Positions 1,205-54,159 of a stretch of 64,000 bases of DNA are shown here, piece by piece. The notes under the pieces were generated by a model. The model saw nothing but the letters and a program-made list of their open reading frames with translations, was not told the DNA's origin and ran no database searches. Source of the stretch: Raillietiella orientalis. Its lineage: Eukaryota. The position numbers and the translations under genes were made by a program. Positions within the stretch are counted from its first letter, which is position 1, and each line of letters starts with the position of its first letter. The DNA lies in NCBI GenBank assembly GCA_036172245.1, contig JAYWIR010000036.1:1860001-1924000 (forward strand). Direction: 5' to 3'.

Positions 1205-1410
1205 TTCACCCGATTGTGATTATTTTTATTTATTTATTAACAAAACATGTGTTTAGGGCCGATGGCGCTACACAACGTCCAAAAAAAGTGCGGAACCGAG
1301 TTACCGGCACCCAGGTCGGCGAGGTTCGACTCGGCAGCGAATGGGAAAGGACAAACCAAAAAATAAACGCTATTTACAAAAAAAACAGGAGGGCCTGGGG
1401 AAGGGATTAC
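1205..1410 (-). mobile_element. Isolated 3' UTR of family A/B element
   Basis: Reverse complement aligns with the 3' UTR at 22170-22399 (ttgtaaatag...gtcctttccc...cgctgccga) and ends cgggtg. Confidence 0.7.
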
Positions 1411-6905: not shown

Positions 6906-6972
6906 GGCTGACGTTAACCAGGGTGACCTCTGTCTTCGCCGCACCTGACAGCAGGCGAATATTGAAATTTAT

Positions 6973-7490
6973 CATCCGGTCACGCCGGGGCGTTTATCAA
7001 TAATAATAAACCGGTCAGGGACAATGTCCCCAACCAACACAACGACAGAGAACAAAGAGAAGTTACCGGCACGCAGTCCGGGTAAACAAATCGCTCGCGA
7101 CATGGGATCAGTAAGAGGATAAAAAAAAAGAAAAAACGCGAGGGAAGGGTCTTTGGTGAGGCTCCGTACTCACAGGGATCCAAACAAGGAGCACCTGGAA
7201 TGTTCCAGAGCCTGAGACGCGAGTGTAAAAAAAAAAAATACAGAAACCAATTCATTGAGGGTGGCGCAAGGGTTACCGGGTTGGCCGCTGCGGGGCGTGT
7301 GTAAACCGGCGGTGTATGTCGGTGAGATCCCTTATTGACTCCTCCTACGGAATGAGGGCATCTGGCGGTCGCTTCCATATAGGAGGATGCTTTTCCGATT
7401 ACCTCTTGGTGCTGCCGGTTGATTACCTGCGCCTGACGGACTGAAACTGTTGCGCGTATGTAACCGATGGTTGCAAACCCGTCCTCAGCG
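6973..7490 (-). mobile_element. 3' end of family A/B element (ORF2 tail plus structured UTR)
   Basis: Terminal ataaacgccccggcgtgaccggatg and a CTGCGT-loop hairpin (7066-7081) on the minus strand. Confidence 0.8.
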
Positions 7491-7494
7491 GGGG

Positions 7495-9102
7495 TCAGCG
7501 CGTCGAGGTAGTCTGTAAAGCCTTTACCTTGGTCCAGCGCTTACTTAATACCCCGCTGAACATAGACGGCCTCAAGATCTTTTCGGTAACAATGGATCGA
7601 TCCGTGGTGATCCATCTTACCAGCATCACTAACCGTATGACGCGCTCTGAGGTCAGTGATGAATTGAAAAAGTATGGAGACGTGCACGCGCTGTGGGAGA
7701 AGCTCACGACATTTGAGGGCTACAATAGCTTCTTCGGTGGCCAGGACGCGGCGCGTGTCATGGTGAAAAATGATTGTGGGCTCCCTCACAAACTAGAGGT
7801 GGCCAACGAGGTCGTCGACCTCTGGTACGTGGGGAAACCTCGGTAATGCGGGTACTGCAATGTAGTAGGGCACCTCTGTAAGAGGTGCCCGAATATTGAG
7901 TGCTATTTGTGCGGGGGAAAAGGACACGTTCGACGCGTATGTCCAAAACGTCGCACTCCTCCTGCAGCCAAAAACGCGCAGGCAAAAAGGCTGAATAAGG
8001 TCGAAAGACCAAAAATTGAAAATGGCCGGCAGCACCCGCCAGCGCCCCTTCCTCCTACACAGGCATGTGAGGTAGAAACTTCCGAAGACGCGAGATTTGA
8101 AGAGGCCTGGCAGCTGGTGAAGGCCAGGAAGGAAAGACCCGAAAAAATAGGGCAACAAAAAGCGGAGAAGGTGGCGACCGGCGTTAATAAAAAAAAGAAG
8201 CCGCGATCCGAAACCCTCCGTGAGTGCTCAGTGGCACTGGAGCACGTCGCCGTTCCCGAGGCTGCCACCCGGATCAAAGATCCTCCCTCACCGTTTGCGC
8301 CGCGCCTGAGGTTTGCGAATGCGAACCGTCTGTTCCCACAGACCGTGAGCCGCGCGACGCGACCGCCGACAACGGTGACGCCGCCTTCTCGAAGGCGGCG
8401 GAGGAGCTCGCGGCAATGCTCGGCGTGCGTGAGAACGCGTCACGCAAAGCCGTGCGAAGGCCGACTCCAACGAATAAGGCCCCCGCAGGTGAGTCCGACC
8501 TGGGGGCCGGAAGTTCATCTTCTTCCGTGGAGGCACCACCCCTGAAAGCGGGACGAAAGTCCCAAAACCCTAGGAGGCGCCTTCCGTCAACGAGCGAGGA
8601 GAAGCAGGAAGCCGACGGAAGCGTGGGAATCCCGGAGGGGGATCTCCCACGCTCGGAAGCCGGTAAGCAGGCGACCCCCATGAAGGAGGGTGAGCAAGGG
8701 AGCGAAGCCCTCCTGCATCCGCCGAACCCGAGCAGCCCTCCCCAATGGAAGAGGGCGATCAGGTAGGCGCGTCACCTCCCTCGTCGGAGCTGTCGGACAC
8801 ACCGGCACCCATGGAGGAGGGGGACCAGGGGCTCGAAGCACCCGCCCCTCCTCCTCCTAGCGTTCAGCCCCAACAGGTGGCGGACGTCGCAACGCCGATT
8901 TCCCAGGATTGGCACCTGGGCTCGCCTGTTGTCGTCGGATCCGCGTGGCTTGTTGGAATGTCAACGGGCTGCGCGACGACGGCAACAGACGGAATACGGC
9001 CGACATCCTGCGTGAGTTCGACCTGGCGCTCCTGCAGGAGATCCACGTGATCACCGCGGCAGACGTCCAGGAGATTAAGACAATGGCGGGGGGCCGGTTG
9101 TT
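7495..9102 (+). mobile_element. ORF1 (RRM-like, CCHC knuckles, K/R/P-rich tail) and first part of APE, cut off by the 3' end of an antisense copy
   Basis: DRSVVIHL...LPHKLEV...DLWYVGKP; CxxCxxxGHxxxxC twice (7847-7945); then ACWNVNGLRDDGNRR...LLQEIH; internal stops and frameshifts. Confidence 0.9.
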
Positions 9103-10930
9103 TATCACCCGGGTGCGCCGGGGCGTTTATTGTAAACTATCCGGGAACAGAGTTCCTGGACAAAGGGGAAAACAAGAGACGAAGGGGGTGGGATCCCCGA
9201 CACGCAGGTCGGTATGCCGAAAGTCCGTAACGGGAGGGAAGGGACCACAAATACACTACTATAAAAAAATAAAAGAAAAAATAAAAGAAAAATATGGAGG
9301 GCAGGGGACAGGGGTCTTTGGTGAGTCCGTTCCTTCCTTTCAAAACCGGCGATGGATGCCGGCGATCTCTCTCCTTACGTCCTGTGGAAGATGCGCCCAC
9401 TCGGCAGCCGACGACATGTTTGTGCTGGCTGATCCGGTGGGCTGACGAACGATGGCCAACTTCTCCAGTTGTCGGTGGGCCTTGTCGATGGCGCGAATGC
9501 AACACACGGTTGCAACAACAGCACCTAAGGACAGGCCGTCTAGCGTGAAGAAGCGGCGCATCAAATCCCTCGCGGTGTCCCCCTGGTGCAGGAGAGCTGA
9601 GGCCAGCCTCCGCCACAGTCCTAGGAGGACACCGCAGTCCAAGAGCAGGTGCGGGAGCGTTTCCACTTCCCCGCACCGCTTACAGTTTGGGGAGACAACT
9701 CCCCCGGAAACAAGGTTCGTGCGCTGGCTGGAGTGAAAACCCCCAATGCACCAGCATAATCACGTCCTGCTTCCACGAAAGGGGGAACACAGAAGTGTTC
9801 AAACACGAGGGAGGAACCACAAGTTCTTCAAGGGGCACACTCAAGTGTTCGCTCCACCGAAGGAGTCCCTTCGGAACGTGGCGAGGTGTGGCGGCGTCCG
9901 CCAGCTCGCAAGTCTTCCAGCCGCCAATAGGTCGCGTTGTTCCTGCGATGGTGCAGGCGACCTCCCATCTCGCCGGATCGCGGCTGTCATCTCTTGCCCT
10001 GAGGGCTGACAGTGCGTCGGCGAGGGGGGTGAGGGCCAGGCGAGTCCACTTCTCCTGGCTGCTGCAGACCTCATCCACCGTGCAGTACGGGGAGAGGTCG
10101 GCGCCACAGAGTTCCAAGAGCGAAACATCCTCGTGCTTTGCCCAGGCATGCAACGATTCCTGCCGCCAGGCTTGAAAGTTCGTTGGGCGGCAGGAGATCC
10201 ATTCCTGGGCTTCCAGGAGCCGGTACAGCGGTTTCAACGGGAAACCGAAGCTTCTCGTGGCGCGCTCCGTGTGCGGCCGCAGCGACAGAAGTCCATCGCT
10301 GCCTGTGCAGCGCCGCAGAAGCAGGCGCGCGGGAGCGCACCACGGAGTGGACCAAAGGTTGGCGCACAGGGCCAACATCTGAAGCTGCACTTGCAGCTCG
10401 ATTCTCTCCAGCGTCAGGATGCCTATGCCAGCATCCCGACGCGGAGCCGCCAAGTCTTTCAGGCGGATTCTGGACCTCGCAGGACCCCACAGAGCGTTCC
10501 TCAACAGGCTGTGCGCCTGGAGCTTTGCCGAGTAGGGGGGCGGGCAAACCAAAAGCAAGGGGCGCGAGAGGGGGACAACGAAGGTGTTCCATATCGTGGC
10601 CCGCTCCGGCAGGACGAACCTGTCATGCTGGAACGGGCTCAGCGCACTCGTAGCCTTCCGAAGGCAGTCCGATCACACTTCCACTGGGCTGATGTTCCCC
10701 AGCGGAACGCCCAGATATTGCATGGAGGAAGCGGTCGGGATCCCCAGGCGGATGCAGTCGGACTGCCCCTCCCACGCCGCATCAATAGGTACGACCACGC
10801 TCTTGCTCCGGTTTACGCTCATGCCCGCTCCCCGGCGGATCACCTCGAAGAAATCCTCGAGACTGGACGCCGGGGTGGTCATGGGTAAGAGGAGAAGCAG
10901 GTCGTCAGCATAGGCCGCCACGGACGGCGT
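9103..10930 (-). mobile_element. 5'-truncated young family A copy (YADD to 3' end)
   Basis: AAYADDLLLLL (10673-10921), 292-aa post-RT ORF (9680-10558), C-x2-C...HLLLDC finger, stop at 9340, intact UTR and terminal hairpin. Confidence 0.93.
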
Positions 10931-10947: not shown

Positions 10948-11850
10948 TTGTCGGCCTATGTGGAGAAGGGGTACAACCCCTCATTGTTCTACAAGGTAGG
11001 CAATCTTTATTCTTTAGAGAGCGCGCGCGCCTTCTCGAAGGGCATGCGCGCTCTCGATGTTAAAGAGGAGGAGCACAGCGCTATGACCATCCGCAGCGGG
11101 GGTCAGTACGTTGAGGTCATCTGCAAACAAGCAGAGCTGGCCCAACGACTGCTCAAAACCCCCGTTGTGATGGGGACGCGCAGGGTCCTCCCCACTACGG
11201 CGGACCGGAGCATGGTGGTCCACCTGTTAGGCGTGACCGCGCGAATGCGCAAAGAACAGGTTCGCGCCGCTTTGGAACAGTTTGGAACGGTCCACGCGCA
11301 GTGGACGAAAGTTAGTCCTTTCGAGGACTACATGGGGCTGCAACACGGCCTCACGGCTGCGCGCGTGACCGTTCGGGAGGGCTGCACTCTTCCCCACAAA
11401 CTGATGGTCGATGGCGAAACCGTCGACCTCTGGTATGTGGGGAAGCCGAAATACTGCGGCTTCTGCAATACGTCGCGCCACCTCAAAAAGAGGTGTCCCA
11501 ACGTGCAGTGCCAAGTATGCGGCACAATGGTTAATACGAGGGAGGTGTGCCCTAAAGCAGCAGTGCGGGTGGTTTCCAAGAGAAACCTTAAAACACGCGC
11601 CCGGCTGCTGCACAAAAGGCTGGCGGCGAAAGCTGCCGCGAAGGCTGTGCCACCCGCGCCCAAGACCCAGGCCGCACCCGAGACCCCGGCGACCAACGCC
11701 GAAAAAGATGAGTAAGCCAGCCAGGAGACTGGGTGGCAAGTAACAACGGCAAAAAATTCAAGGAAGGAGAGAAGGATGGAGAAAAAAATCGCCTACCAAC
11801 AGAAGAAGAAAGAGCAGGGTAGCGCGATAATTAAAGAGTGCAGCGTCGTC
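10948..11850 (+). mobile_element. ORF1 (gag-like) fragment, open for 255 aa
   Basis: DRSMVVHLLGV...DLWYVGKPKYCGFCNTSRHLKKRCPNVQCQVCG; truncated at both ends. Confidence 0.9.
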
Positions 11851-11857
11851 GTTTATT

Positions 11858-14800
11858 AGCCGGTTGCACCGGGACGTTTATTAATGATATCATCTGGGAA
11901 CTGTGTTCCCAGGCAAGGGGAACAGAAGATGGGGAAGAGGGTTCCCGGCACGCAGGCCGGGCACACTGAGAGTTCGGAACGGGAGGGAGGGGACAATAAA
12001 TAAATAAATTGGGAGGGAGGGCGGGGACAGGGGTCTGCAGTTCAGCCGTTCCTATTCTCAGAACCGGCGGCGAATGCCGCCAATCTCCGTTCTCAATTCT
12101 GCTCGAAGGTGTGGCCACCCGGCAGACAGTTGCAGGTTGCAGGCTGCAGTGTCGGGGACCGATGTTGGGACTGCTCGCATCTGCAATACGTGGCGGGCCC
12201 TGACAATGGCGCGGACGCAGCAGATGATTGCGACGACCGCCCCAAGAGATAGGCCACCACGCGTGAAGAAGCGGCGCATCCAATCCATTGCGGTGTGTCC
12301 GGGGTGCAGGAGCGCTGAAGACAGCCGCCGCCACAGCTCCTGGAGGGCACCGCACTCAAACAGCAAATGCGAAAGCGATTCCATTGCTCCGCATTGGGCA
12401 CAGTTCGGGGAAGCAACTCTCCCGGAAATCAGGTGCGCCCGCTGTTTGCAGTACAAACCCCAATGTACCAGCAGAAAAGCGTCCTGTTTCCACCGAAGGG
12501 GGAAGAGTGTTGCATCCAAACACGCAGAAGGGACCACAAGTTCATCGGTGGGCACCCCGAGGAGCTCACTCCACCGGAGAAGCCCCTTTGCACAAAGGCG
12601 AGGCGTGGCAGCGTCTGCCAGCTCGCAAGTCCTCCAGCCGCCCAGAAGTCGGGTTTCGCCTGCGATTTCGCAAGCGACCTCCCACCTCGCCGGCAGGTCA
12701 CTGTGATCTCGCACCATCAGCGCACACAGTGCTTCGGCGAGGGGCGTGGCGGCTAGGTGTGTCCACTGGTCCTGGTCTTCCAGCACCTCCCCCACTGGAC
12801 AGTATGGGGAAAGGTTCACGCAACGGAGTTCCAAACGGGACACATCCTGTTGCGCTGCCCAGGACGATAAGGCTTCCTGCCTCCAGGCGTTGAAGTTCGT
12901 CGGCCGGCAGGAGATCCACTCATGCTTTCCCAGAAGCGTGGCGAGCTGCTTCAAAGGGAAGCCGAATCCTCTCTGGGCGCGCTCCGTGCGCAGATGCAAC
13001 GAACGTAGTCCGTCGCCACCCGTACAGCGCCGCAGCAGCAGCCGCGCTGGAGCACACCAGGGAGTAGTCCAGAGCTGCGCACAAAGTGCCAGCATGCGGA
13101 ACTGCACTAGCAGTCCGATCCGCTCCAGCGTCAGGATGCTCAATCCTGCATCCTGCCGAGGAGCCGCCAAGTCCTTCAGGCGTATCCTGGACCTCGCCGG
13201 TCCCCACAGGGCGTTCCGCAACAGGCGTTGCGCCCGGCGCTTATCCGAGTAGGGAGAGAGACAAATAAAAAAGAGGGGACGGAGGAGGGGGGCAACGAAA
13301 ATTTTCCACACGAAGGCCCGTTCCGACAGGAGAAACCTGCCGCCATGGAACGGGCCCAGAGCAGTCTCGGCCTTGTGAAGGCAGTCCGACTACGCTTCTG
13401 CTGGACAGAAGGCGCCCAAGGGAACGCCGAGGTACTTCAAGCACCTGTCCGTGGGGATCCCCAGGCGGATCCAGTCGGACTGCCCCTCTCACGTAGAGCC
13501 AACCGGTACAACGGTTGATTTCGTCCTGTTGACGCTCAGGCCCGCTCCGCGACGAATGAGCTCGAAGTCCTCAAGCCTGGACGCCGGGGTGGACATGGGC
13601 AGCAGCAGGAGAAGGTCGTCAGCATAGGCGGCCACGGCCGGTGTTCCCGGGCAGGAGCTCGGCAGGTTGGCCAGCGTCAGCCTGTACGCCCTCACCACCA
13701 ACTCAAAGAAGATGCTGAAGAGCAGGGGGTTAAGCTGTCTCCCTGCCTGAAACCCCGCCGTATGGGAATGTCGTACACGTGGCTCCCGCTGAAAGAGATA
13801 CAGCATAACGCGTGGCGCCAGCAGGAGCGCAAGTAGGCGATGAGGTGCGTCGGGAGGCCTAGGCGTCCCAGAAGCTCCAGAAGGAGGTCCTGGTTTACGC
13901 TGTCGAACGCTTTGCAGAGATCGACGGCGACCGCTAAGGCTCCCGGCGTTCCATCGTGCCTTGAACACCGCCGCTTACCTTTGGCAGCGGCGATTTCGGC
14001 TGCTTGGCTCTGCTGTGCCACGCGCTGCTGCAACTCGAACCATGTTCGCGCGAAGAAGAGATTTGCGTCCATGGACCGCCCCGGAACAGCATACGTCTGC
14101 TCCTGACTTACCAAGGACTCCGCGATTCTCCCCAGGCGCGCGACCCATAGCTTGGAGAACAACTTGACGTCCGAATTCACCAAGGTGATCGGACGCCAGT
14201 TGCTGAGGTGGCGTAAATCACCGCCTTTCGGCAGGAGACGCACCTTTGCTGAGCGGAAAGAAGCGAGAACATCTCCCGTCTCACGCATCAGCGAGGAAAG
14301 GCTTAGCACCAGGGGGACGAGCTCCGCCGCGAAGCACTGAAAGAACTCCGCGGGCAGGCCATCCTCCCCAGGCGCCTTACGCCTCTTCAGGCCCGCTATG
14401 GCGAAAGATACTTCTTCCGCCGTGAAGGGCCAATCCAATCTGGTGCGTTCCTCCTCGTCGATAGCAGGGTTGGCCGTCGGAAGAAGCAGCTCGGAGAGAC
14501 TGCGTTCCGTGGGCTCCTCCGCGTACAACGAGGAGTAGTAGCGCTTGACTACGTGGTGTCCTTCGGCTGCAGCGGAGCATTCCTGGCCAGCGTCATCGAG
14601 CAGACAAGCCGCTCCAGACTGCCAAACCTGGCGCTCGGCCCTGGCCTTGTACTCCGCCAGACGCCGGACGTCCGGGCATCGAGAGAAGGTACGCGCCTGT
14701 AGATAGGATCTGCTGTTCGCGACACCCTCCCCGAAGCCGCGGGGAAGCAGGTGCAAGGGGAACCGGCAGCAGAACTCGCGGACCGATCTTTTGAGATCGT

Positions 14801-16747: not shown

Positions 16748-18075
16748 TCGACGACGTCGCCTTTGAGCGAGCGGCGGAGGAGCTCGCTGCGTCCTTGCAG
16801 CGTCCCCTTAAATCCGCGAAAAAGGCCTTAAGGCGTCCGACCTCTATCAAGAAGTCGGAGATTCCGAACTCTGACGCAGAGGCGGAAAACAGCCTGCGGC
16901 ATCGCGTCCTCCCGCCCGAAGGCCAATCGCACGAAGAAGGCTTCCCGCAAAATTATCCCGTCCGTGGAAAAGGGAGAGATAATTGAGGGAAGCGAGCGTG
17001 CCAATAAAGTGGGGAACTCCGGGGACTCTCCTCGAGAGGTAACCCCACGCTGCGATCCCGGAGGGAGGGAAAGGGTAGAGTCTGTGCCCCAGGTGCTTCA
17101 AGTGCCTGAGATGGCCGCGGTCCCCTTACTCGTCCCTCCCACCTGTCCCTTGACAGGTGCTGCAATGCCACGTTCCCAGCCTTAATGCCGGGATTCGCCT
17201 CTTGCCGCCGTCTGCGAATTGCCTGTTGGAACGTCAACGGGCTAAGCGACGACGGCAAGAGACGAGACGTGGCCTCCACCCTGGCATCGTTCGACCTGGT
17301 GCTGCTGCAAGAGATCCACGTGATCTCCGCAGATCAAGCAACGGAGATCGAGCGTATCTCGGGTGGACGGCTGCTGTGGCGTTGCGGCACCGTTAAATCT
17401 TGCGGTGTCGCGTTCCTGCTTCGTCCAGCTGTCGAGGCTGCGGAAAAGGGCGTACGGTTCGATAGTGCCGGTCGCGTCGGGCAGTTGACCATCAGGTGGT
17501 CCGACTCCATCGATCTGGTCATTACCAGCGTGTACGCCCCAAGCGGCAGCGACACGCTAAGGGCAAAGGCAAGGAGAGATTTCTTCCTTACCCTGAGGCG
17601 CGAATATCTGGACGAAGCGGGAGTGCGCAAAGCGCACCTAATCGCAGGTGACTTTAACCTGCGCCTGCTGTCAGGTGCGTCCGACACACTTCGGGACCGC
17701 GTGAACGAGCTGTGCGCAGAGATGCACACGCGCAACTTGTTCGCGGGAGATCCGGAAATGGTCGACAGCATAGATCACGTGTTTCTTGACCAGCACCTCT
17801 GCTCACGCGTGGGCAGGCGCGGCAAGTTACCGTCGGAACTGTCGGACCATGCCCGGATCGTACTCGAGGTGCGGCCACGCGATAGGGGTCCGCCGTCATC
17901 TGCGTGGCGCTTACCGGGGGACTGGCTGAAGCTCCCGGACGCGGCGGAACATCTCCGCGCGTTCATACGGAACTTCAGGATGCGGACGCTTCAGGACTGG
18001 GACCGCTTCAAGCAGTCGGTCCAGGAGTTCTGCGACCGGTTCCCTTTGCATCGCCTACCTGCGGGATTTGGGGTT
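16748..18075 (+). mobile_element. Family A subfamily fragment: ORF1 tail plus complete open APE domain (ORF2 ATG 17185)
   Basis: IACWNVNGL, LLQEIH, SVYAPSG, AGDFN, IDHVF, SDH, WRLP all in one frame; ends at the 3' terminus of an antisense copy. Confidence 0.93.
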
Positions 18076-18077
18076 GT

Positions 18078-19380
18078 CACCCGGGTACGCCCGGGGCGTT
18101 TATTGAAAACACTCTACATAAACGTGGTACGAGGCCCCACTAACGGCCACACAACACCGGACCTGCCGGGACGCCGGGACGCAGCCCGGCGTGACGCTCC
18201 TCGGCAGTGGAGGGGGATAGAGATGAAAACAAAAAGAAAAATAAAGATAAGGAAAACAAAAAAAGAGTTTGGAGGGAGGGGAAGGGATCACAATCCACTG
18301 GGAGGAGGGCCCATCCTTCGCAGGATGCCCTCCAGGTCCATCTTCATGCTTCCCAGATGGGGCCATCTCGCAGCTCTCCGCATGAAGCAGACCGCATACG
18401 GGATGACATCCCTCGCGTTGGCATCCACTCCTTCGTCGCGAATGTCGCTCCAGGCCGCCACGATGCTCCGAATGCAGCAGAGGGCTGCGAGGGCTGCGGC
18501 GGGATGTAGGGCGTCCCGCACAAAGAGGGGCCGAAGAACGTCTCTGGGCGCGCTGCCCATTGGGAGCCCGAGGGTCGTCCCGAACCGTTCCCACAGGGGT
18601 CGGAGGGCAGCACAGTCAACAAGTAGGTGGGGGAACGACTCCCGCTCCCCACACCTGGCACACTCAGGCCTTACACATCCCCGCGTACAGTGGAAGCGGC
18701 GCGCGTTGCAGAATAGACCCCAATGCAGCCACAGAAGCGCCGATTCTTGCCACTTCAGGGGGAGAAGCCTGGATCCAATTAGTATTGGGGGCCACTTCAG
18801 GTCATCCGTTGGGATGCCGAGCAGCTCGCCCCATCTACGAAGTCCACGCGGGAGGGCACTCGGGGTCGTGGCATCTGCCAGTTCTCCCATGGTCCAACCG
18901 CTCATCGTCTTTTCCTTGCCTGCGATTCGGCAGGAGACTTGCCACTTTGGCGTACGGCCGCTGGTTAAAGCCCTTCGTAGGAAGGGCAGGGTCGAAGCTA
19001 GAGGGGTAGTCTCCACCTACGTGCTCCTGGCGGGACACGCCAGAGTAGTCCGCAGTGTGCAGCAGGCGTTGGGGCCGAATCGCAGGCGGTTCCAGTCCGG
19101 GGAAGTCTGGAGGTTCAGCTTGGCCCACGTCGCAACGGATTCCTCCAGCCAGGCGGAGGAGTTGGCGGGGCTGCATACCGTCCAGCCGTTGTCTCTCACC
19201 AGGGCTTCCATGCGCCCAAGGAGAAGGCCGCATCTTCTGCCCTTCCTGCCAGAGCACAGAAGGTACGACGCGAGTCCTTGCGTCCTGGACACACGGCTGG
19301 CGAGGATGTGGGCCGGAACGCACCAAGGGGTGCTCCATGACTTTGCTGCGATGGCGAGGGTGCGCCATCGCAGCAAAGAA
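18078..19380 (-). mobile_element. 5'-truncated family B copy (post-RT region, zinc finger, UTR)
   Basis: KSWSTPWC...; CARCGERESFPHLLVDC; ends AARWPHLGSMKMDLEGILRRMGPPPSGL* (18288); structured 3' end. Confidence 0.9.
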
Positions 19381-20684
19381 GAGAGAATCGAGCTGCAGGT
19401 GCAGCTTCGGATGTTGGCCCTGTGCGCCAACCTTTGGTCCACTCCGTGGTGCGCTCCCGCGCGCCTGCTTCTGCGGCGCTGCACAGGCAGCGATGGACTT
19501 CTGTCGCTGCGGCCGCACACGGAGCGCGCCACGAGAAGCTTCGGTTTCCCGTTGAAACCGCTGTACCGGCTCCTGGAAGCCCAGGAATGGATCTCCTGCC
19601 GCCCAACGAACTTTCAAGCCTGGCGGCAGGAATCGTTGCATGCCTGGGCAAAGCACGAGGATGTTTCGCTCTTGGAACTCTATGGCGCCGACCTCTCCCC
19701 GTACTGCACGGTGGATGAGGTGTGCAACAGCCAGGAGAAGTGAACCCGCCTGGCCGTTACCCCCCTCGAAGACGCACTGTCAGCCCTCAGGGCAAGAGAT
19801 GACAGTTGCGAACCGGCGAGATGGGAGGTCGCCTACACCATTGCAGGAACAACGCGACCTATTGGCGGCTGGAAGACTTGCGAGCTGGCGGACGCCGCCA
19901 CACCTCGCCACGTTCCGAAGGGACTCCTTCGGTGGAGCGAACACTTGAGTGTGCCCCTTGAAGAACTTGTGGTTCCTCCCTCGTGTTTGAACACTTCTGT
20001 GTTACCCCTTTCGTGGAAGCAGGACGTGATTATGCTGGTGCATTGGGGTTTTCACTCCAACCAGCGCACGAACCTTGTTTCCGGGGGAGTTGTCTCCCCA
20101 AACTGTAAGCGGTGCGGGGAAGTGGAAACGCTCCCGCACCTGCTCTTGGACTGCGGCGTCCTCCTAGGACTGTGGCGGAGGCTGGCCTCAGCTCTCCTGC
20201 ACCAGGGGGACACCGCGAGGGATTTGATGCGTCGCTTCTTCACGCCAGGCGGCCTGTCCTTAGGTGCTGTTGTTGCAACCGTGTGTTGCATTCGCGCCAT
20301 CGACAAGGCCCACCGACAACTGGAGAAGCTGGCCATCCTTCGTCAGCCCACCGGCTTAGCCAGCGCCAGCATGTCGTCGGCAGCCGAGTGGGCGCATCTT
20401 CCAGAGAGCGTGAGGAAGGAGATCGCCGGCATCCATCGCCGGTTCTGAAAGGAAGGAACGGACTCACCAAAGACCCCTGTCCCCTGCCCTCCATATTTTT
20501 CTTTTATTTTTTCTTTTATTTTTTTATAGTAGTGTATTTGTGGTCCCTTCCCTCCCGTTCCGGACTTTCGGCATACCGACCTGCGTGTCGGGGATCCCAC
20601 CCCCTTCGTCTCTTGTTTTCCCCTTTGTCCAGGAACCCTGTTCCCGGATAGTTTACAATAAACGCCCCGGCGCACCCAGGTGAT
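19381..20684 (+). mobile_element. 5'-truncated family A copy, nearly identical to 9103-10408
   Basis: ERIELQVQLRMLALCANLWSTPW...EIAGIHRRF* (20448); UTR differs from the 9.1-kb copy at only a few positions. Confidence 0.93.
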
Positions 20685-21090
20685 AAACAGCCGACCCCCC
20701 GCGATCGTTTCGATCTCCTGGACGTCTGCCGCGGTGATCACGTGGATCTCCTGCAACAGGGCCAGGTCGAACTCCCGCAGGGTGTCGGCTGTATCTCGCC
20801 TGTTACCGTCGTCGCGCAGCCCGTTGACATTCCAACAGGCCGCGCGAATCCGACGGCGACTGGCGAACCTAGGTGTTACTCCTGGGAAGATGGTGATGCG
20901 GCGTCCGCCACCTGCTGGGGCGGGACGATAGGTGGAGGAGGAGGGTCAGGTGCTGAAGGCACCTGGTCCCCCTCCTCCATAGGTAACGGCGCGTCGAGCG
21001 GGTCACCCACAGGTGGGGTCGCGCCTACCTGTTCGCCCTCCTCCATGGGGGCAGGCTGTTCAGGGTCGGCACCTGCAGGGGGGACTTAAC
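20685..21090 (-). mobile_element. ORF1 tail plus APE start (paralog of 8700-9102)
   Basis: ACWNVNGLRDDGNRRDTADTLREFDLALLQEIHVITAADVQEIETIAGGRL. Confidence 0.88.
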
Positions 21091-21159
21091 CCCCCTGTTT
21101 ACTGGTGGACAAGGGGGTGAAGTTCAGCTGGACACGGGGCTGGACTTCAGCTGGTGCGA

Positions 21160-22399
21160 GCCTGCACGATGCCTTGTTCAGCGAGCTAGCGGGTGCGCGG
21201 GCCTGTCTACCTTCCTAGCGCGCCGCAAACGCCGGTACCTGTTTCACTGCGGACTGGCACTTCGGCGAGTGGCGAAGCTGACCATAACGAACACCTGGAT
21301 CTCCTGTCGGCCCGCGAACGGTACTTCCTGGTTGCAGGAAAGCCTTCGCACGTGGGCCCAGATCGAGGAAGCGAGCCCGGAGTTGCGGCAGCGAATGCTG
21401 CTCTCCTATCACAAGAGCCGCTCGCTGCAGGACATCATTGTGCAGCCCACCTTGAGCGCATGGGCTGAGAGGACCTCCCTTGCCACGGCTCTGTTCCACC
21501 TTAGAGAGCACCTGGGCAGTAGGCAGCCGGCGAAATGGGAAGTCCGGTGCAGTATCTCTGGAAGAGAGAGAGAGCAAGGTGGTTGGACCACAGGACAGTT
21601 TGCAGACGCTGTGACCCCAAGTGTCCCACCGGAGGGACTATTGCGCTGGGGCGAGCTGCTGAGCATCCCCATGGATGTACTCGAGTGGCCCCCGGTGCTG
21701 AAGACTACCCGGGCCCTCCTGCTGAAGTGGCAGGAGTCGGCGTTCCTGGTGTTGCACTGGGGACTCCCCAGCAACGCCCGCCGTTCGCACTGGACGAGGG
21801 GAGCTGTGGACCCAAATTGTGTCAGATGCGGGGAACGGGAAACCCTCCCGCACCTGCTTCTTGACTGTGTTGCCCTCCGGTCTCTGTAGTTGCGTTTCGC
21901 AACGGCCCTAGGAGCACCCACGATCAACCCTAGAGACGTTCTGACGCGCCTCTTTGTGCGTGACGCCCTTCGGCCTGCCGCAGCCCTTGCAGCCCTCTGC
22001 TGCCTACGAGGGATTGTGGCGGCCTGGAGCACCGCCACTGGTGGACTGAACAACAGGGACATCATCTGCTCCGCCCTGCGTTTCCTAAGGACGGCAGCCA
22101 GATGGTCCCATTTGGGGCATATGCGGACCGAACTTGCCGGTATCCTGGAAAGGATGTAGAGGACGACTCCACTCCTCCCTTCCCCAACTCCTCCCTGCTT
22201 TTGTAAATAGTGTTTTCTTTTTGTTTTTATTGGTCCTTTCCCCCCCCGCTGCCGACTCGAACTCGCCAGCCTGCGTGCTTGCTACTCAGCAATTTCAGAC
22301 TCTTTCTTAGAACATTTTTTTAGGACGCTGTAGTGGCAATAGCCCTACACTTGCTTGTTTGTTTTTACTAAAAAATAAACGCCCCGGCGCACCCGGGTG
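21160..22399 (+). mobile_element. 5'-truncated family B copy with 3' end
   Basis: WISCRPAN...CVRCGERETLPHLLLDC...AARWSHLGHMRTELAGILERM* (22159); ends aataaacgccccggcgcacccgggtg. Confidence 0.92.
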
Positions 22400-25300
22400 T
22401 AAAAGCAATCACTCCAATCATGACCAGGTTCGCCGTTCATACCGATAGAGAAACGCTTATCGAGGCTTATCGAGATGGGCATCACAATTCAGGGAGGAGT
22501 GGTACGCGGCAAGGGCGAAACGTCCACACGGAGGTGTTATTCGCCGGCGTATGCGTGACCACGACTCAGCAGGCAGTGCGGCGATTCCTTTCCGGATACG
22601 GAGAAGTGAATTCAGAAACTACAACGGAAAGATCTCTGCCGACGAAATCACCAAAATTCAGCTGAACGAAGATGCAAACATCCCAGGACTGGTGCGCATC
22701 AATACGGACTTCCAGGAAATCTCCGTAAAATACCGCAATAGCCGGTATTTTGCTGTAAATATTTTCGCCATCGGGTGTGCGCATGACCCCGACCTCGGTG
22801 TTTCCGCTGTGGAAAGCACGGACACCAGATCAGAACGTGAGACCAACCTGAGGAGTGAGCCTTCTGTAAAACAACAACAACACACGCAAGGTAAAAATGC
22901 CCGGAGTTCGCAAACTGACTCACAATGCGTGGTCTCTCTTCCGTGAGAGAAAGAACTAAGATGGAGGCAGAACAGCCTCAAAAGAAGACGGCTCCCAAGA
23001 AGTAAAAAGGAAAAAAGGGAAGAGGAGGATGCCTGCTAAGGAGCAGCAGACCTCCGAAAGCATGACAGAAATTGCTGTGGTAGACAGAATGAAGGCAGCC
23101 GAGCCCGTCCCGGATATGCAGGAAATCCTGCAAATTACCGAGGAAGTGGCGAAGCTGAACGAGAAAGTCCGTCCATGGATAAGCGGAGAGGAGCAGATGA
23201 AACTCCTGCAGGACATCTGCAGAGTTCAGGAAAACATCAAGGAAGTGGCGAAGGAAGTCCAACGGGAGAAGATGGAAAACAAGCTCCTCGACGTACAGTC
23301 GAACTTCTGTGAGATAGTGAGCTTGGAAACGCTTTTACGCGAAGTTATCACAAAGGCAAATCAATCGACGGAAAAGCCCAAATTCACCAACATAGAGAGA
23401 TGCCGGAAGTGAAAAATCTTCTGCTCGGAGACTGCGGCGGTCTCCGCAACAGAGAAGATCAGAAAAACAAAAAAATGGATATCCTCTATGGCTTTGTTCT
23501 TGTCAACCAATAGGAGGATCGACATAGCCTCCTAAAATGTAAATGGACTAATAGACCAGGGTAAAAAAAAAAAAATAATGCGAATCATCGCACACGAAGA
23601 TATCGTGTGCCTTCAGGAGACCCACAAGATGGGTCTCCAGATGGTCCTCGAGATTGGAACGACGTCTGAACGTCCAACTGTTTGTCAGCAAGGGACAGAG
23701 GAAGAACCAGGATGTAGGGATCTTCGTGAAGAATGACCTCGCTCACACCATCCTGGAGACCTTTTGTCCCATGCCCGGAAGGATGTTCGGCTCACAATTC
23801 TCGGGTCCGCCGACGTTCCTGTGTTCTTGGTCAACCATGTATGGACCACACAAACAAAAGTATCGGTGCGCGGAGGCGCTTCACGGAGCACTTTCTGTCA
23901 AAAGGTCGCACCGAAGTACATATCCATCGTTGTGGGCGACTTGAACATCCTGGATAAAATCCCCCATTCTCAGGACACCGCAGGGAGGACGAAGTATCGG
24001 CGGCTGTTCGACGAGTTCGGGCTGCTGTGGCTAACAGTGAGCCATAAGCCAATCGACCACGTCTTCCACAGTTCCGAAATCGGAAATCGCATTCACGGTT
24101 TTTTCGACACGCAGACCCTGCTGTCGGATACCCACAGGTGCATTTCCCTAAGGACGGAAAATCCTCGGCGGAAGAAGGCCTCCAGGACGGCGATAAACTG
24201 CACGCCCGCCTGGTTCGAGACGCTTCCCTGTCACCAGGAAATCATCGATGCGACTCTGCTCACCGCCACATCCTCAGATTCGCCGACTGGGACAGTTTGA
24301 AGCATCGCGTCCATCTGTTGTGCAACTTGCAGTTCCGGGACAAGAGACACAGGAAGCCTATCGGGAACTGAACATCCAAGATCGCTTTCTTTCGTAGTAC
24401 TGGGAACATTACGAGAACCAATACGTCTTCCAAAATGTAAAAGGGAAATTCGGTGTCTTGTAGTAGAGGAATATGGTGGCAGACATCTGCATTGAGTACG
24501 ACAGAGAAAGCAGGTACACGTCGGAGGACATCATGGACGTCTTTCAAAGGCACTACACCAGTCACTTCTGACGACACGAACTATGCATAGCAAAACAAAA
24601 TGCTTTCCCATGTTTTCTGAACAGAAGGGTTCCCGAGAACCAACAGAAGAAGCTTGAAGACGAAATCTCTATGGGAGAGGTGAGGACTGCGTTTGCGGAC
24701 CTACTGAAAGATGTGACCACAGACCCTGATAGTGTTCTTATCACACGCAACCAGCGGTACCTGCATGCCTACATGAGTTTGTTTTATCAGTTGACGCTAT
24801 GCATCCGTAGAGAAGGAAGACTACTTGCATTCTTCTACGGAAGAATGGGGAGATTTCTGCCAAAAGGAGGTGACTTGACCAAAGTCACCCAATTGGGTCA
24901 ATCTCCAACCTGAATTCGGACGCCAAGTGGTTGGCGAAGATCTGGGACAACCGCTTAGGCGGGACCCTGTCCAGGCTAATTTCTCTGGTCCAGAAAGGCG
25001 CGGTACCCGGACGTTACATCTCGGGCAATGTCAAGTGGGTCCAGGGTACCATTAAACTCTGCCGATGCTCGGCGAGAACTCGGAACTGGGTTTCGCAGAC
25101 ATGGAGAAGGCTTTCGACACAGTCGAGCACAAAATGCTTGTAAAGATTCTGTGAATACTTCAGTGAATATTCTGTGAAAACCGGAACACTACAGCAACTT
25201 CGTGAAGATAGTACTCGAAGAGCCATATTTGCGGATTGAAATCAACGGACAGGAGACAGAAGCCATGTGGATAGGGCAAGGAATCCACCAGAACGACGCT

Positions 25301-26480: not shown

Positions 26481-26699
26481 GCACAACTGACAGAAGGCGG
26501 AAGGAATGCACGGACGGGCCTTTTTTTGTCGCTCCGTCTCGTTACTTCCAGACTATGTTTCTTATTGGTGTTGTGCGTTTGAAGAGAAACGAAATGCTAC
26601 AAGAAGCAATGGATTATCACGCGGGTGCGCAGGGGCGTCTATTTCATCGAGAGTGAACTTTCACGAATGACAGGGATTCGACCAGTGGTCTAGCTACGT

Positions 26700-28559: not shown

Positions 28560-29840
28560 AAACTTCACGTAGAATGGGAGTCCCCAATTTGACGAAGACC
28601 TGGGCACAGCGTTTCCTGAGGAAAGCCCTGTGGGGCACTGCGAGGTCGCGGATTCGCATGGCAGACTTGCGCTGGGTCAAAATGCAGACTTGGGCGTTCT
28701 GACGCAGCTTCGCCGACCGAGAAGATCTGCTGGTACGTGGGCGGTACAAAATACAACGATTCGGTCCCCCGCTGAGGCAACTCCCCTCTCTATAAACCGC
28801 CCATCGATAGACCTGCTGCTGCTTTAGGAGTTCGAATGCCTGGAGGCAGAGGGCGGCTGTCTACTGGGATGCCAACGTGGGAATGTGCCTACTGGAACTT
28901 CTTCCCCTGCGTCTCTCCTCAACCATCTTTTGGGAGAGATGTGGAGGACCTGAAGAGGCGCAGAACCACGTCCGTCACATCTGTTGCCGCTGCGCTGCCT
29001 GCCCTAGGGGCAAGCGAGGGCAGTTGTCTCCTGGCGGGCAGCAAGTTCTCGTGCACCATTGCAGGAGACATCACACTCCAGGGTGGCTGGACGACGAGCG
29101 AGTTGGTGGGCGCCCCCTACTCCTCGTTCCCAAGAGATAGCCCACGTGGGTGTTGAGTGTGTCCCTAGTGGAAACTGTTGGTCCGTTTCCTCTGTTGGAA
29201 TATTTCGGTGCCCTCGATTCATTGAAGCGCCAGCTGCTGTTGTTTCTGCACTGAGGTTTCCTTTACAAGCAGCATGAAACCCTGGTTTCCGGGGGAGTTG
29301 CGTCCCCGAACTGCTAAAGGTGAGGGTCGGTGGAGTCGACCCCGCACCTGCTTCTGGACTGCGGTGGTCTCAGCAGATTGTGGCAGCATCCAGCAGGAGC
29401 GCTCCTGCACCAGGAGGGCACCGCCTGCGACCTACTGCGGAGATTCTTCGCGCGCGGCGGTCTCTTGGCTGGCGCAGCGATTGCAACGTTGGGCTGCGTG
29501 AGCGCCACCTTCACGGTCCGCCGCGTCTTGGAGAAGGAAGGGCAGCGGAGAACGGCCGCCTGCATGGGGACTGCCTAAGTGAGTACGGCCGAGAGGTGGC
29601 CACACCTAGAAGAGGAAGTCAAGGAGGTGGTCGGCAAAGTTCGGGGCCAATTCTTGGAGAAAGGAACGACCAAAACCGATGACCTCTGTTCTCACCCTTT
29701 TTATTTTCTTTTTGCACCCTCCTTGCGTTTCCGGGATGTTCACGAAGGAACGGCACATGGAGACACGGACTCTGTTCGGAGTTTTTTTGTTTGTATTTTT
29801 TGGTTGACCTCCTCGTCTACTCATTTCTCATTTTTGTTGT
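28560..29840 (+). mobile_element. Old family A ORF2 3' fragment
   Basis: RFLRKALWGTARSRIRMADL; ESTPHLLLDCGGLSRLW...LLRRFFARGGL; ERWPHL; T-rich UTR. Confidence 0.8.
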
Positions 29841-30248
29841 GACAAAGCTGCGTATCAGTGCATCCTGATCTTTTTGTTTTCCTTGGAGAACTCTTTTTCA
29901 AGAGGTTTCTACGTCGCTGAGAATAAAGTTTGCGAGCGTGACCGGCTGAGAAAATTTTGTGAGTTCTCTTCTCTAAGAACTTGTGCTTCCGCAAGAGTTC
30001 TTGTGGATCTCTAGCAGGAGCACCGCATGATGGAAACGCTGGCTTCCCGGCGTTCCCTCCATCGTTAAATGAGGCCGCAGGCGGTTAGATCTTACATGGC
30101 GCCTCATTCGATGTAGGCAATTCTTTCTATTATAGTGTCAGTGCTTCTTTCTCTCAACTCAGAAAATCCAGAATTACCGTGCATCACGAATATTTGTGGT
30201 TCACAACGAAGTCACTTTTATTTCGCGACAGTAATGAACGGCATTCTG

Positions 30249-37899: not shown

Positions 37900-40050
37900 C
37901 TCAACCACCCGGGTCCTGACAAATTCAACTCGTCCTAGGTACCGTTTGAAACCTAGAGAATGCAGTGCCTTCCTTCCGCAGCTTCATGTCGACTCTTTTT
38001 TTTATTCTCTCTTCGTTTGCACTTTGCCTCCTCGTTTCTTCTATGCATGTGCATACCATGCCTGTTTTTTCCAAAGTTGAGCGCAATCTTTTTTCGGGAT
38101 GCTGCATCCTCTATGTAGTCTTGTTCGTCGTTTTTTCCGTTGAGACTTCCAGAGTATCCGACTGCAACGTTGCTGCGTTGCTGACACGTTGAGAAAAGGA
38201 AGCCGTTAGGGAAGAGCTTGAGAAGGAAGCTGTCGCACGAGACCTGACGTGGTTACGGAGCAGAAACACGTGAGGAGTCTTTGCCGGTTCCCTTTTAGGA
38301 GGGTGGCGAGTCTCGGAGCTTCGACTCTGCTTCCAGAGCGCGGAGGTTCCTGACGAGAAACAAAACGACTGTTCTTTCCCGTTTCCTTTCCTGATCACCA
38401 TCATGCCTACTGACCTTCCAATGCAAAGACTCTGACAAGAAGGGCTGTCAAGCAGCAATGGGAATCTGAATGCAGACAGAGGATGTCTTTCCAGTTCAGG
38501 CGATAATTAAAGAGAGATCATACAGGATCCAGATCTCCTGAGTGCGGTCCTTCTAAACGCCTTCCCATCTCTTCCACTGATTTGCACGTTTATAAATGTT
38601 TGAGTGGAGCCTACATGCTGGAAATGTGCTTCATCAGTGTTTTTATAGTGCGTAGTCAGGCTGCAACCCGGATTCATGAAGGGAATCTGATTTCAATGAG
38701 GAACTTCCTTTTTTTGACGGCTTCCTTTTTTTTGTTTGCAAACTGTTGAAAAATCGCTTGCTTTTTTAAGAAGGCTTACAAATCTCTTTAACGCTGTCCA
38801 CGCCACCCGAGGATGCGTGCAACTCTTCAAGTTGTAGGAGGTAAACCCAGAGGGATCATCTATGAATTCAGGGAGGCTGCGGAGAAAGAATTTTCGTACG
38901 CTTGGTAGGGAGCCACGAAGAACCCTCGCACTGATTGTCCCCAAAGGAAGCTCTTTGCTTTATGTCCTGAGGAGAATGGGATGCTGTCCATTTTCTCTAA
39001 GGATGGCTCCCAGAAGAGTGCAGAGCTCTTCCTGCGCTCTGGGGATGCAACTTTCCTGCAGAAGTACGAACCACCTCCGGGGTACGTGACGAAGCGATGC
39101 CTTGCGATGCTGAAGACAAGACTCAGGTGGAACATTAGGAGATGACGTGAAATAGAGGAGAGGACCACACGTTCCGCCGGTCTCTGCTGAGGGAGGAGTG
39201 AAAGGGAAGAGAGCTGCAGTGAGGACCATGTACGAATTAGCAATAATGTACACTAATCGAGCAGGAAGCAATGCATGCGAAATCAGAAATAACAAAAGAA
39301 GAAGACATGATTGCATCCAATCCTCTTTTGCTTTCCTTTAGGGAGATCCAGCGCCGGATCCTGCGGGATAAAACTCGAAGCCAAATGACAGAAAAAATTC
39401 GCCGTATGCATTGCCCGGAGGTAGAGCGACCCAAGCATCGTCAGCGAGCCTTTCGAATGGGCGACCGACAATCCCGGTTAACCTTAATCGATAGGAAAAA
39501 TGGAAAGATAGAAAGTAGAACTAGGCAACGCCTGAAAACGCATGAATTCGTGCGGTTCACAGAACGAGTTCAGGGCACCAGTAGAAGGAAGGCAATAGAT
39601 GGCTCTCGGGCGGGCACATCCTGAAGAAACCTGCCGGAAATTATTGCTGGATCACAGCTGGGTGTAGAAGAGGCTGTATAAACTGCTGAATGCAGACCAC
39701 AGAAGGCCACACCTCGCCGAGGAAAGCGGAGCTGTATCCAGAAGAGACAGCAAGTTCAGCCTAGCTGGAGGACAAAGGATGGTCAGCCGCCGAAGGAAGG
39801 TGAGCCGTTCCCTGAAATAGGTGAGACGTGCAAGTCTGGAGCAGCTAAAGGCTAAAAAGTCGCCCACCATCACTTTGGCTTCGACCAGCCCAGAAATGAG
39901 GGCAAGACGCTCAGCGTCGCCAGAAAATAGTAGGACCTCCGTTGAGCTCTTCCATCTGGATGCAGGTGTTCTGAACGTCTGAAGAGGGTTCACGAAACCT
40001 CAGGCGCTGGTACCAGAGCGAGCTCTTAGAAGGGAGTAAAGAAGGCATTT
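37900..40050. mobile_element. Very old L1/Tx1-like fragments in mixed orientation
   Basis: Minus KAKSFLWGQSVRG (38.9 kb) resembles RNALWGPARSR; plus IRRMHCPEVERPK (39.4 kb) resembles ORF1 VRRVCP...KVERPK. Confidence 0.4.
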
Positions 40051-40051
40051 T

Positions 40052-41150
40052 CACCCGGTCACGCCCCGGTGTACATTGCAGAAGAATACAAATTTCTAGA
40101 ATAAGTAATTCACGAAGGTACGCAGTGGCAGCACTTCCGAGTGTTTCTGAGGAGTCTCCTTCCCAGAACACCCTCCAGAAGACGCCTGCACTGAGAAATT
40201 AGAAGGAAGGGGAAGAAACAAAAAAACAAATGAGTATTGAACAAAAAAGTACTAAAAGGTTTAAGGATGGAGGGGAAGGGGAAAAGATCACAGACAGCTC
40301 CCTGATGCCTTCTGTACCCTCTCAAGGATTCTGGCAGGTGCCTCCCAGTCATGCCTCAAATGCGGCCATCTCGTCGCGATCCTCAGGAACGAGGAGACGA
40401 AGGAGGTGGCATCACCGTTACTTTTCTGGCACGAGGGAGAGGCAGGAGCTCCCGAACGGCAAGGGCCGGAAGGAAACGGCGGTCGAGCGAACCTATCGGG
40501 CGGGTGCGCACCTGTCCAAGGCCGCCAAACAGCGATTCATCCGAAGACTAAGCGGAAAACTGACCTGAGCAAGCGATCCCATGGCGCAGGAATCGAGAAA
40601 CTTCTCTCCTATGAAAATCCTAGATCAGAGCGGATCTCGAGCCGCTTGTTTCCCGGAAGTAAAGCCGGGAACCATCTGTTTTTGGTGGGTGCTCATGGCC
40701 TGTGAGAACGTCAAGCGACTGCAACAGGACAGGAAGAGCAGAAAGACTCATCTGCCGCCCTGGAAACTTTCCCTCTTGCCATACTCCGAAGCGAATTGAG
40801 ATCTCGGCGGAGGATGCTGGTCTCCTCCGATTCCGCCACAGCGTCTCTTTGCTCCATTGAGAGGAAGATAAGCAGGGTATTGTGCCCGAACAGCAGCAAA
40901 TCCTGTTCAAAAACGTTTGTTTGCCTATTCATCACTATGACGCAACCGGTGGGGAACTCACGTCATCAGCGGGGACGGAAAAAAAATTGAACCGAGGGGA
41001 CACGCACGAATCACGTGAATCAAAAGCAAATGCGAAGGAAAAAACTGATTGCTACCAAAGCGAAGTTCTAAAGTCCGTGGGTCCACTTCACCTTCTTGAA
41101 GCCAATGCAGCTTTCTGCTTCCTGCTATCGCTGCGGTACCCACCGTTAAG
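40052..41150 (-). mobile_element. Old family A 3' fragment with terminal hairpin
   Basis: Ends ccggggcgtgaccgggtg; HLPESLRG resembles HLPESVRK. Confidence 0.65.
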
Positions 41151-45207: not shown

Positions 45208-45226
45208 TGCGCAGTGTGCACTTTTG
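45208..45226. repeat. 19-bp direct repeat, left copy (probable target-site duplication)
   Basis: tgcgcagtgtgcacttttg, exact match to 50401-50419. Confidence 0.85.
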
Positions 45227-45397
45227 ATTTCCCCAAGTCCTACTAGGGGTAGGGTGAATTTATTTTCTTTTATATTCATGCTACAATTTCATTCATACAA
45301 GTTACACAGAAAAACTTCACTTCACTTCACGAGTGTTCTCTTGAAGTCTATTTCTCTGAAAGTTCACTGCACTTATTCACCTGAGCGCCGTTTGAGC

Positions 45398-48836: not shown

Positions 48837-48845
48837 CAAGAGGAT

Positions 48846-52150: not shown

Positions 52151-52155
52151 CTTTT

Positions 52156-54154: not shown

Positions 54155-54159
54155 CCAAA

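Follow-up and report, generated by a model that had tools for sequence, protein, structure and literature searches.

The classic example of relaxed template choice dependent on poly(A) is provided by long interspersed nuclear elements (LINEs) of the L1 type. The locus described here raises the question of what marks the 3' end of the RNA in L1-like LINEs whose copies end without poly(A). It lies in a stretch of 64,000 nucleotides (nt) of Raillietiella orientalis DNA (the window; GenBank assembly GCA_036172245.1, contig JAYWIR010000036.1, positions 1,860,001 to 1,924,000 of the forward strand), in which a preliminary description had proposed a conserved multi-hairpin 3' element in a group of L1-like LINEs. 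Our analysis bears out that element. The tail motif was found, by eye and with a covariance model, at 13 LINE 3' ends (copies A, A2, B, C, D, E, F, G, H, I, J, L and N), which share a first hairpin (H1), a second hairpin (H2), the sequence AATAAA(CG) and a terminal hairpin (H3). All 13 tails lie directly downstream of the C-terminus of open reading frame 2 (ORF2) or its remnant. Copies A and A2 are not independent, a correction to the preliminary description, because both sit in one inverted duplication: 19381-21083 is an inverted duplicate of 10408-8708, is 93% identical over 1704 bp including flank, and carries the 3' part of a LINE whose untranslated region (UTR) is 98% identical between the two. 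The 13 ends therefore represent 12 independent insertions.

The 3' UTR downstream of each ORF2 stop measures about 200-290 nt. It consists, in order, of a short conserved box, a pyrimidine- or T-rich tract, a second box, H1, H2, AATAAA(CG), H3, and TGA with a few A-rich bases (Table 1). The module is defined by an invariant H1 loop CUGCGU, by an H2 that is usually similar to GGAAC/GUUCC, and then by AAUAAA, the GC hairpin H3 and a terminal ...CCGGGUGA with 2-6 A-rich nt. The H1 positions given in the preliminary description for copy A and for the other sites (9197-9212, 11944-11961, 18171-18192, 7066-7081 and 22266) all carry CTGCGT on the element strand. The 3' boundary of copy A, whose target is the antisense endonuclease region of another LINE, was placed by setting its junction against two uninterrupted paralogous endonuclease sequences. 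The element ends in ...CCAGGTGATAAA at 20687 and the target resumes at 20688; GATAAA at this junction is element sequence, not target.

The first UTR box, AGGAACGR...ACCAAAGACCCCTG, stands just after the stop codon (20450-20479 in A), and the second, which is pyrimidine-rich and ends in ...CCGYTSCCGR, just before H1 (20543-20566 in A). Both have homologous places in B, D, F, K (56270-56300), C, E and I. A fourth, long-range helix between the two boxes (GGAACGG/CCGTTCC in A and B, with other pairs in E and I) was considered and rejected, as 51-233 of 500 shuffles do as well.

No poly(A) was found at any of the 13 ends and none has a run of more than four consecutive A, in agreement with the earlier statement that at most a few A residues stand in its place. 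TGA or TG is followed by ATAAA, TAAAA, ACAA, ATAA, CCAAAA, AAAA, AAAAT, AGAAAA or AA, the number of A-rich bases after TGA being 2-6, and no tandem array was detected at the tails by Tandem Repeats Finder. AATAAA is present in most ends about 20 nt from the end, the canonical distance to a cleavage site, and in copy A H3 fills this spacer exactly. A stretch similar to GUUUA, upstream of the signal, can form a predicted A/U mini-hairpin with (A)UAAAC that would occlude AAUAAA. This mini-hairpin appears in the minimum free energy (MFE) folds of C, D, E and H; in A it is possible by complementarity, and the MFE fold pairs that stretch otherwise. The mini-hairpin is thus a possible feature of 5 of about 12 families.

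Secondary structure was assessed using RNAalifold on a MAFFT alignment of five independent, well-kept copies. H1, H2 and H3 were predicted without guidance. Of 100 cells in this structure 83% are paired, and both sides have changed in 8 of the 20 pairs (five in H1, three in H2 and none in H3). Not one of 500 shuffles reached either 83% pairing or eight double-changed pairs, and pairing fell to 25-50% when the 3' partners were slid by 1-3 columns. The H1 stems CCGAC/GTCGG (A), CCCGGC/GCCGGG (B) and ACGCCGGG/CCCGGCGT (E) enclose a constant CTGCGT loop, and H2 is formed by CCAGGAAC/GTTCCCGG in A, CTGGGAAC/GTTCCCAG in B and TTGGGGAC/GTCCCTGA in D. The alignment shows, for n = 5 copies only, that H1 and H2 are kept by compensatory change. 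The covariation announced in the preliminary description thus stands for these two hairpins and falls for the terminal one. Copies C and I share a different middle hairpin, the apical stem of which is swapped between them (GGC..GCC versus GCC..GGC).

Stems adjoining CTGCGT are specific to the UTRs. The eight CTGCGT sites within UTRs have 8, 6, 5, 5, 3, 0, 0 and 0 consecutive flanking pairs, whereas none of the 38 sites elsewhere in the window has more than four and only two have four. A covariance model trained on A, B, C, D and E, run with filters off and E up to 10, returned 24 matches. The five training copies and A2 scored 95-124 bits (123.8 bits for the duplicate A2), seven of the 18 non-training, non-duplicate matches were untrained ends (I, J, H, G, F, N and L), and the remaining 11 of the 24 were short partial matches that we treated as noise. 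The sequence AATAAACG occurs eight times in the window against 0.99 expected, a count reached by none of 100 shuffles. Five of the eight occurrences open a LINE tail, one (11850-11857) directly follows the B hairpin, and two (1362+ and 53945+) are not tails.

The strongest single sign of constraint, as judged from sequence comparison, is the identity of the last 27 nt set against diverged UTR bodies and ORF2 C-termini. Over these 27 nt A2 is 96% identical to C and 93% identical to E, with a mean of 74% over eight families. UTR bodies outside the tail, in contrast, give short BLAST matches only, and ORF2 C-termini are 35-61% identical (39% between B and C, 35% between B and E).

We propose that the last ~125 nt of these L1-like LINE RNAs serve as a family-specific 3' tail, a reading to which we would give somewhat better than an even chance. 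AAUAAA would direct cleavage and polyadenylation of the transcript just after H3 and so set the end of the RNA. The ORF2 protein (ORF2p) would then recognize the hairpins in a stringent manner, the H1 loop being the specific contact and the stem providing shape, by analogy with zebrafish L2 elements (PMC4176376). Target-primed reverse transcription would begin at the first residues after UGA, and a stringent start at that point would leave genomic copies with few A residues and no poly(A).

The contrast between tail and UTR body might alternatively reflect exchange of 3' ends among co-resident families, through template switching or gene conversion, rather than selection within each lineage. 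Such exchange would be in keeping with 93-96% tail identity beside barely alignable UTR bodies and with copies nested in one another on both strands. The tail is still recognizable, however, in the distant or decayed families H, J, L and N, and a constant H1 loop on different stems is not a product of exchange, which would in any case itself imply a need for the tail. We consider this explanation highly unlikely.

Several observations weigh against the proposed structured tail. Folding energies are ordinary, with z-scores of -1.05, -1.55, -1.73, -0.69 and -2.62 for the sense strand, and the antisense strand (-0.47, -0.34, -0.41, -2.92 and -1.32) is not clearly worse; thermodynamic stability was dropped as an argument for the tail, these z-scores being too weak. 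The MFE folds differ among copies. The covariation test comprises only five sequences and, according to a warning given by the tool, sequences that are related may outdo shuffles even when no structure is present. G.U cells (6) are approximately as common as A.C/C.A cells (about 5), so that wobble pairing does not show the strand. H1 is missing, stemless or unrecognizable in F, N, G, J, L and H, which are more distant or decayed. H3 has no compensatory changes in the five-copy alignment, all of its variable cells being mismatches, and a folded H3 is indistinguishable from a direct repeat because CCGG is its own reverse complement. Lastly, the preliminary description had suggested a search for short interspersed nuclear elements (SINEs) sharing the tail; within the 64-kb window, the scope of our search, no tail without a LINE body, and hence no partner SINE, was seen.

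The arms of H3 read CC(C)GG and CCGG(G) everywhere, and only two hints suggest that they fold. Copy B has an extra T-A stem pair together with a shortened loop, and at the sole mismatch of copy A (20678) a related public DNA run (X1) has G in 4 of 4 contigs. If H3 need not fold, the terminal block could be a 3'-processing signal that is read as sequence only, consisting of AAUAAA, a spacer and GGUG(A) as the cleavage or downstream element. Reverse transcription would then be relaxed or would use the short A stretch, and the missing poly(A) would reflect where priming starts. The presence of AATAAA in most ends at the canonical ~20 nt is consistent with such a signal, as are an H3 without covariation, the self-complementarity of CCGG and the weak z-scores. 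It leaves unexplained, however, why H1 and H2, 70-110 nt upstream, covary and why the spacer is nearly identical across families with 35-39% identical ORF2, and it does not sit well with the way in which B lengthens the stem by a T-A pair while its loop shortens. On balance we regard a pure processing signal as unlikely, although it deserves to be kept in mind.

A kissing loop between UGCG of loop 1 and CGCA of loop 3 had also been put forward. The complementarity itself holds, as 20 of 20 cells pair in the five copies, and three of the four pairs vary on one side and stay paired via G.U. No pair of the kissing helix has changed on both sides, however, and loop 1 is invariant. The variants of loop 3 (TGCA, CGTA and CGTG) come from single transitions. 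Of the four transitions that CGCA allows, three would leave a G.U pair in any case, so that this tolerance may be due to chance; in copy H the loops (CTGCGC and CAAGTA) are not complementary. If the 3' half of H1 is instead joined to the 5' half of H3 in a long-range helix, 84-88% of cells pair, and the MFE or centroid fold of A2, B and D takes this form. One of the 14 pairs of the helix is double-changed, and 77 of 500 shuffles pair as well. This duplex fits about as well as the kissing loop because of the likeness between H1 and the reverse complement of H3, and because the four arms, each built on CCGG, can pair in any combination. That H1 and H3 cooperate in either of these ways, closing the 3' domain and perhaps switching with the local hairpins, is in our estimate quite unlikely, and the present data do not discriminate among local hairpins, a kissing complex and a panhandle. 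Less likely again is an elaboration in which H1 and H3 would be inverted copies of one CCGG-flanked motif (UGCG/CGCA). The 3' domain would then alternate between a state with two local hairpins and one with a long-range duplex or a kissing complex. As an RNA switch it would link the making of the 3' end at the internal AAUAAA to the capture of the RNA by ORF2p, and poly(A)-dependent priming would have been abandoned by this L1-type element.

Processed RNA motifs of known kinds (self-cleaving ribozymes, histone-type stem-loops or tRNA-like ends) also come to mind for a GC stem-loop lying at the very 3' end with no poly(A) after it. A search of Rfam, which the preliminary description had recommended, gave no match on H1, H2 or H3. 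Rfam 15 returned no matches at gathering score in the whole window, and at E up to 5 over 17950-22500 the one UTR match, to snoU82P at 22151-22206, was at chance level (15.3 bits against a gathering score of 42, E 1.6). ARAGORN predicted no genes, and AATAAA lies upstream of the terminal stem-loop, which is a further point against a known motif. We would give this explanation hardly any weight.

Relatives of the tail were sought with the pattern ATAAACGY CCCGG, a 3-6 nt gap and CCGGRTG, which is narrow and would miss diverged relatives. The scan listed 43 loci (26 on metagenome contigs, one on a viral contig and 16 on contigs of prokaryote genomes). Inspection of the printed flanks by eye disclosed no LINE-like 3' UTR around any of them; locus L035 has CTGCG upstream, in an unrelated context. 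The 43 loci were treated as chance matches, given flanks unlike a LINE UTR. A published description of this tail was not found in a search outside of which lay most subscription journals and the Repbase consensus sequences. A search of sequencing runs gave one public run with a small share (0.19) and listed no RNA run. The DNA run X1 yielded, for 17900-22500 of the window, 271 short contig pieces of related LINE copies, of which 193 are less than 90% alike and only 3 are alike at 99% or more. The family therefore exists, in diverged form, in at least one other sequenced sample.

The elements of the window are called L1-like (L1/Tx1 group), a probable placement that comes from similarity ranks. 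Two ORF2 domains pass curated Pfam cut-offs, Exo_endo_phos (7.9e-14) and RVT_1 (1.1e-10), while zf-RVT is a weak match (17.9-19 bits against a cut-off of 27.5). Among solved structures the reverse transcriptase (RT) is closest to human L1 ORF2p (8c8j and 8sxt; 7e-29 against 1e-10 for R2). A protein search with the RT region found nearest named relatives that are 28-31% identical and one unnamed metagenome protein at 62%, with all others at 36% or less. An Atlas look-up of the RT gave generic animal and plant RT clusters only.

Eel UnaL2 and zebrafish ZfL2-1 and ZfL2-2 are L2-clade LINEs with stringent-type 3' tails. Like these, the tail described here brings a conserved stem-loop to the very 3' terminus of the LINE RNA. 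The loop is conserved while the stem varies, and the role proposed for the tail by analogy, which would be cognate recognition by ORF2p before target-primed reverse transcription, is the same. It differs from them in its L1-like RT, in having three hairpins instead of one and in the AAUAAA between hairpins. It also ends in UGA and 2-6 A-rich nt, not in a short tandem repeat, has no partner SINE that was seen in the window, and is known here from sequence. The available text on zebrafish L2 elements describes stringent-type LINEs as having a 3' stem-loop with a conserved loop and a variable stem, recognized by ORF2 in a loop-specific and stem-general manner (PMC4176376).

Most LINEs are described as 'stringent', with a 3' stem-loop, in the available part of a second source (PMC3747384), which also reports that human L1 depends on its poly(A). 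The same text describes an L1-clade lineage of monocots with a conserved 3' hairpin, compensatory mutations and conserved loop bases, and the Chlamydomonas element L1-1_CR, which shares its tail with a SINE; both end in poly(A). Our elements are like the monocot lineage in that the last tens of nt are far better conserved than the rest and contain a hairpin with compensatory mutations and conserved loop bases. They are unlike it in the absence of the poly(A) end and, compared by named motifs only, in carrying CUGCGU and CCGGGUGA where the monocot lineage has the loop UCU and the flank CGAG. With human L1, a relaxed-type element, they share AATAAA near the 3' end as well as the closest relationship among solved RTs; unlike human L1, no copy here has poly(A) and the tail is conserved in sequence. 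Tx1-clade target-specific LINEs are, in the text available, L1-related elements with an apurinic/apyrimidinic endonuclease (APE) that often lie inside other repeats (PMC4494074), and in both respects the LINEs of the window resemble them. Tx1-like target specificity was not seen, however, as the flanks of 10 tails differ and have no shared motif. Site-specific insertion, suggested by the flank shared by A and A2, was rejected because both sit in one 1.7-kb duplicated block.

On the best reading, the tail is family-specific and stringent-type, is joined to a poly(A) signal, and belongs to a kind that has already been described, including in one L1 lineage. The preliminary description had not recognized such a signal as described in an L1/Tx1 lineage; as far as the available parts of the sources go, the kind is already in print (PMC4176376; for the L1-clade monocot lineage, PMC3747384). 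The present tail differs from those described in its arrangement of three hairpins, in having AAUAAA within that arrangement and in lacking both poly(A) and a terminal repeat, in a sequence that matched nothing searchable.

As the evidence stands, this is one more family-specific LINE tail. The combination of L1-like enzymes with a strictly conserved structured tail and no poly(A) provides a data point on whether stringent recognition is ancestral in the L1 clade, a question raised in the accessible text of PMC3747384. The tail would also give a compact RNA-protein pair for testing template choice by an L1-like ORF2p, and the 27-nt tail together with the CTGCGT hairpin make good markers for annotating the family and for hunting SINEs that borrow the tail.

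Table 1. Coordinates in the window of the LINE 3' ends, their parts and neighbouring LINE features (CM, covariance model; E, its E-value)
Feature	Position	Strand	Description
Copy A 3' UTR	20449-20687	+	From ORF2 stop (20446-20448) to last tail A
Copy A H1	20576-20591	+	CCGAC (20576-20580), loop CTGCGT (20581-20586), GTCGG (20587-20591)
Copy A H2	20629-20647	+	CCAGGAAC/CCT/GTTCCCGG, one A.C mismatch
Copy A AATAAA	20657-20662	+	Putative poly(A) signal, 20 nt before first tail A
Copy A H3	20666-20680	+	CCCGG/CGCAC/CCAGG; A at 20678 is a private mismatch
Copy A end	20681-20687	+	TG + ATAAA; short, A-rich, without poly(A)
Copy A2 3' UTR	9101-9339	-	Duplicate of A, 98% identical in UTR; H3 intact
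Copy B 3' UTR	11852-12057	-	H1 CCCGGC/CTGCGT/GCCGGG; H2 CTGGGAAC/ACA/GTTCCCAG; H3 CCGGT/GCA/ACCGG; then CT + AATAAA
Copy C 3' UTR	22160-22404	+	H1 weak (AGC/CTGCGT/GCT); middle hairpin differs (TGTAG..CTACA, apical GGC..GCC); H3 intact; then TG + TAAAA
Copy D 3' UTR	6968-7167	-	H1 CCGG(A)/CTGCGT/(G)CCGG; H2 TTGGGGAC/ATT/GTCCCTGA, two G.U pairs
Copy D end	within 6968-7167	-	Signal GATAAA; H3 CCGG/CGTGA/CCGG; then ATG + ATAAA
Copy E 3' UTR	18074-18290	-	H1 ACGCCGGG/CTGCGT/CCCGGCGT; H3 CCCGGG/CGTA/CCCGGG; then TG + ACAA
Copy F	29828-29957	+	CTGCGT loop without stem; longer middle hairpin; decayed tail; CM E 0.25
Copy G, decayed tail	26609-26679	-	AATAGACG CCCTG CGCAC CCGCG TGATAA; CM E 0.22
Copy H, distant family	54015-54163	+	AATAAATG + CCGG/CAAGTA/CCGG + TGCCAAAA; CM E 0.034
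Copy I	1221-1333	-	C-like, old; loop 1 CTGGGT; tail partly deleted; CM 22.8 bits, E 4.7e-4
Copy J, distant family	52147-52247	-	Middle hairpin GGAA/TTCG/TTCC; tail CCCAG/TGCGA/CCGGG + TGAAAAG; CM E 0.019
Copy K	56213-56560	+	ORF2 C-terminus and first UTR box; no H1 or tail after; 3' part apparently cut off
Copy L	58377-58513	+	Tail strongly decayed; middle hairpin GGGAAC/TTTCT/GTTCC kept; CM E 7.7, weak
Copy N	40043-40138	-	CTGCGT without clear stem; tail CCGGGG CGTGA CCGGG TGAAAAT; downstream of decayed ORF2-like C-terminus; CM E 1.1
A/U mini-hairpin, copy A	20651-20663		GTTTA at 20651-20655
A/U mini-hairpin, copy C	22350-22380		Approximate
A/U mini-hairpin, copy D	6991-7013		Approximate
A/U mini-hairpin, copy E	18097-18125		Approximate
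A/U mini-hairpin, copy H	54105-54135		Approximate
Distant LINE ORF1	49533-50075	-	Weak zinc-knuckle match, 20.0 bits against cut-off 20.8
Distant LINE endonuclease	47546-48921	-	Pfam scan
Distant LINE RT	46916-47542	-	Pfam scan

The window is eukaryotic DNA and consists almost wholly of the remains of retrotransposons without long terminal repeats. A graveyard of L1-like LINEs, with endonuclease, RT and zf-RVT parts, occupies positions 1-22,400, and scattered sites lie beyond it; G+C is 54-63% in the former region and 38-56% further on. Within positions 1-22,400, several L1-like families are represented by copies nested within each other on both strands. In being self-nested, this LINE cluster recalls those of Zepp/ZeppL in green algae as the available text describes them (PMC8226300), a resemblance only. 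The Pfam scan covered 84 reading frames of the window (8 long frames and 76 of the 131 frames of at least 130 amino acids). Its matches were confined to Exo_endo_phos, RVT_1 and two sub-threshold domains, zf-RVT and, just short of the cut-off, one zinc knuckle; no non-LINE domain was thus found in the frames scanned.

The decayed tails of G (26609-26679), L (58480-58513), F (29920-29957) and J (52147-52185) differ from the consensus mostly by CG to TG or CA, which would fit host CpG methylation of repeats. A further, more distant LINE lies on the reverse strand at 45000-50075; its C-terminus and 3' tail were not found by tblastn or by the covariance model.

The open frame of 877 amino acids at 17110-19743 (+) is a chimera. 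Its residues 1-321 are a real endonuclease domain, and residues ~404-753 come from reading in antisense the C-terminal region of copy E, an element of the opposite strand (E tail 18074-18104); the antisense strand of the GC-rich LINE DNA near 17110-19743 is open for more than 1 kb. In the LINE fragment adjoining copy A, an inverted repeat of 21 nt (20933-20979; 86% complementary, with a 5-nt spacer) gives weak sub-threshold matches to several microRNA families on both strands, which are probably due to chance.

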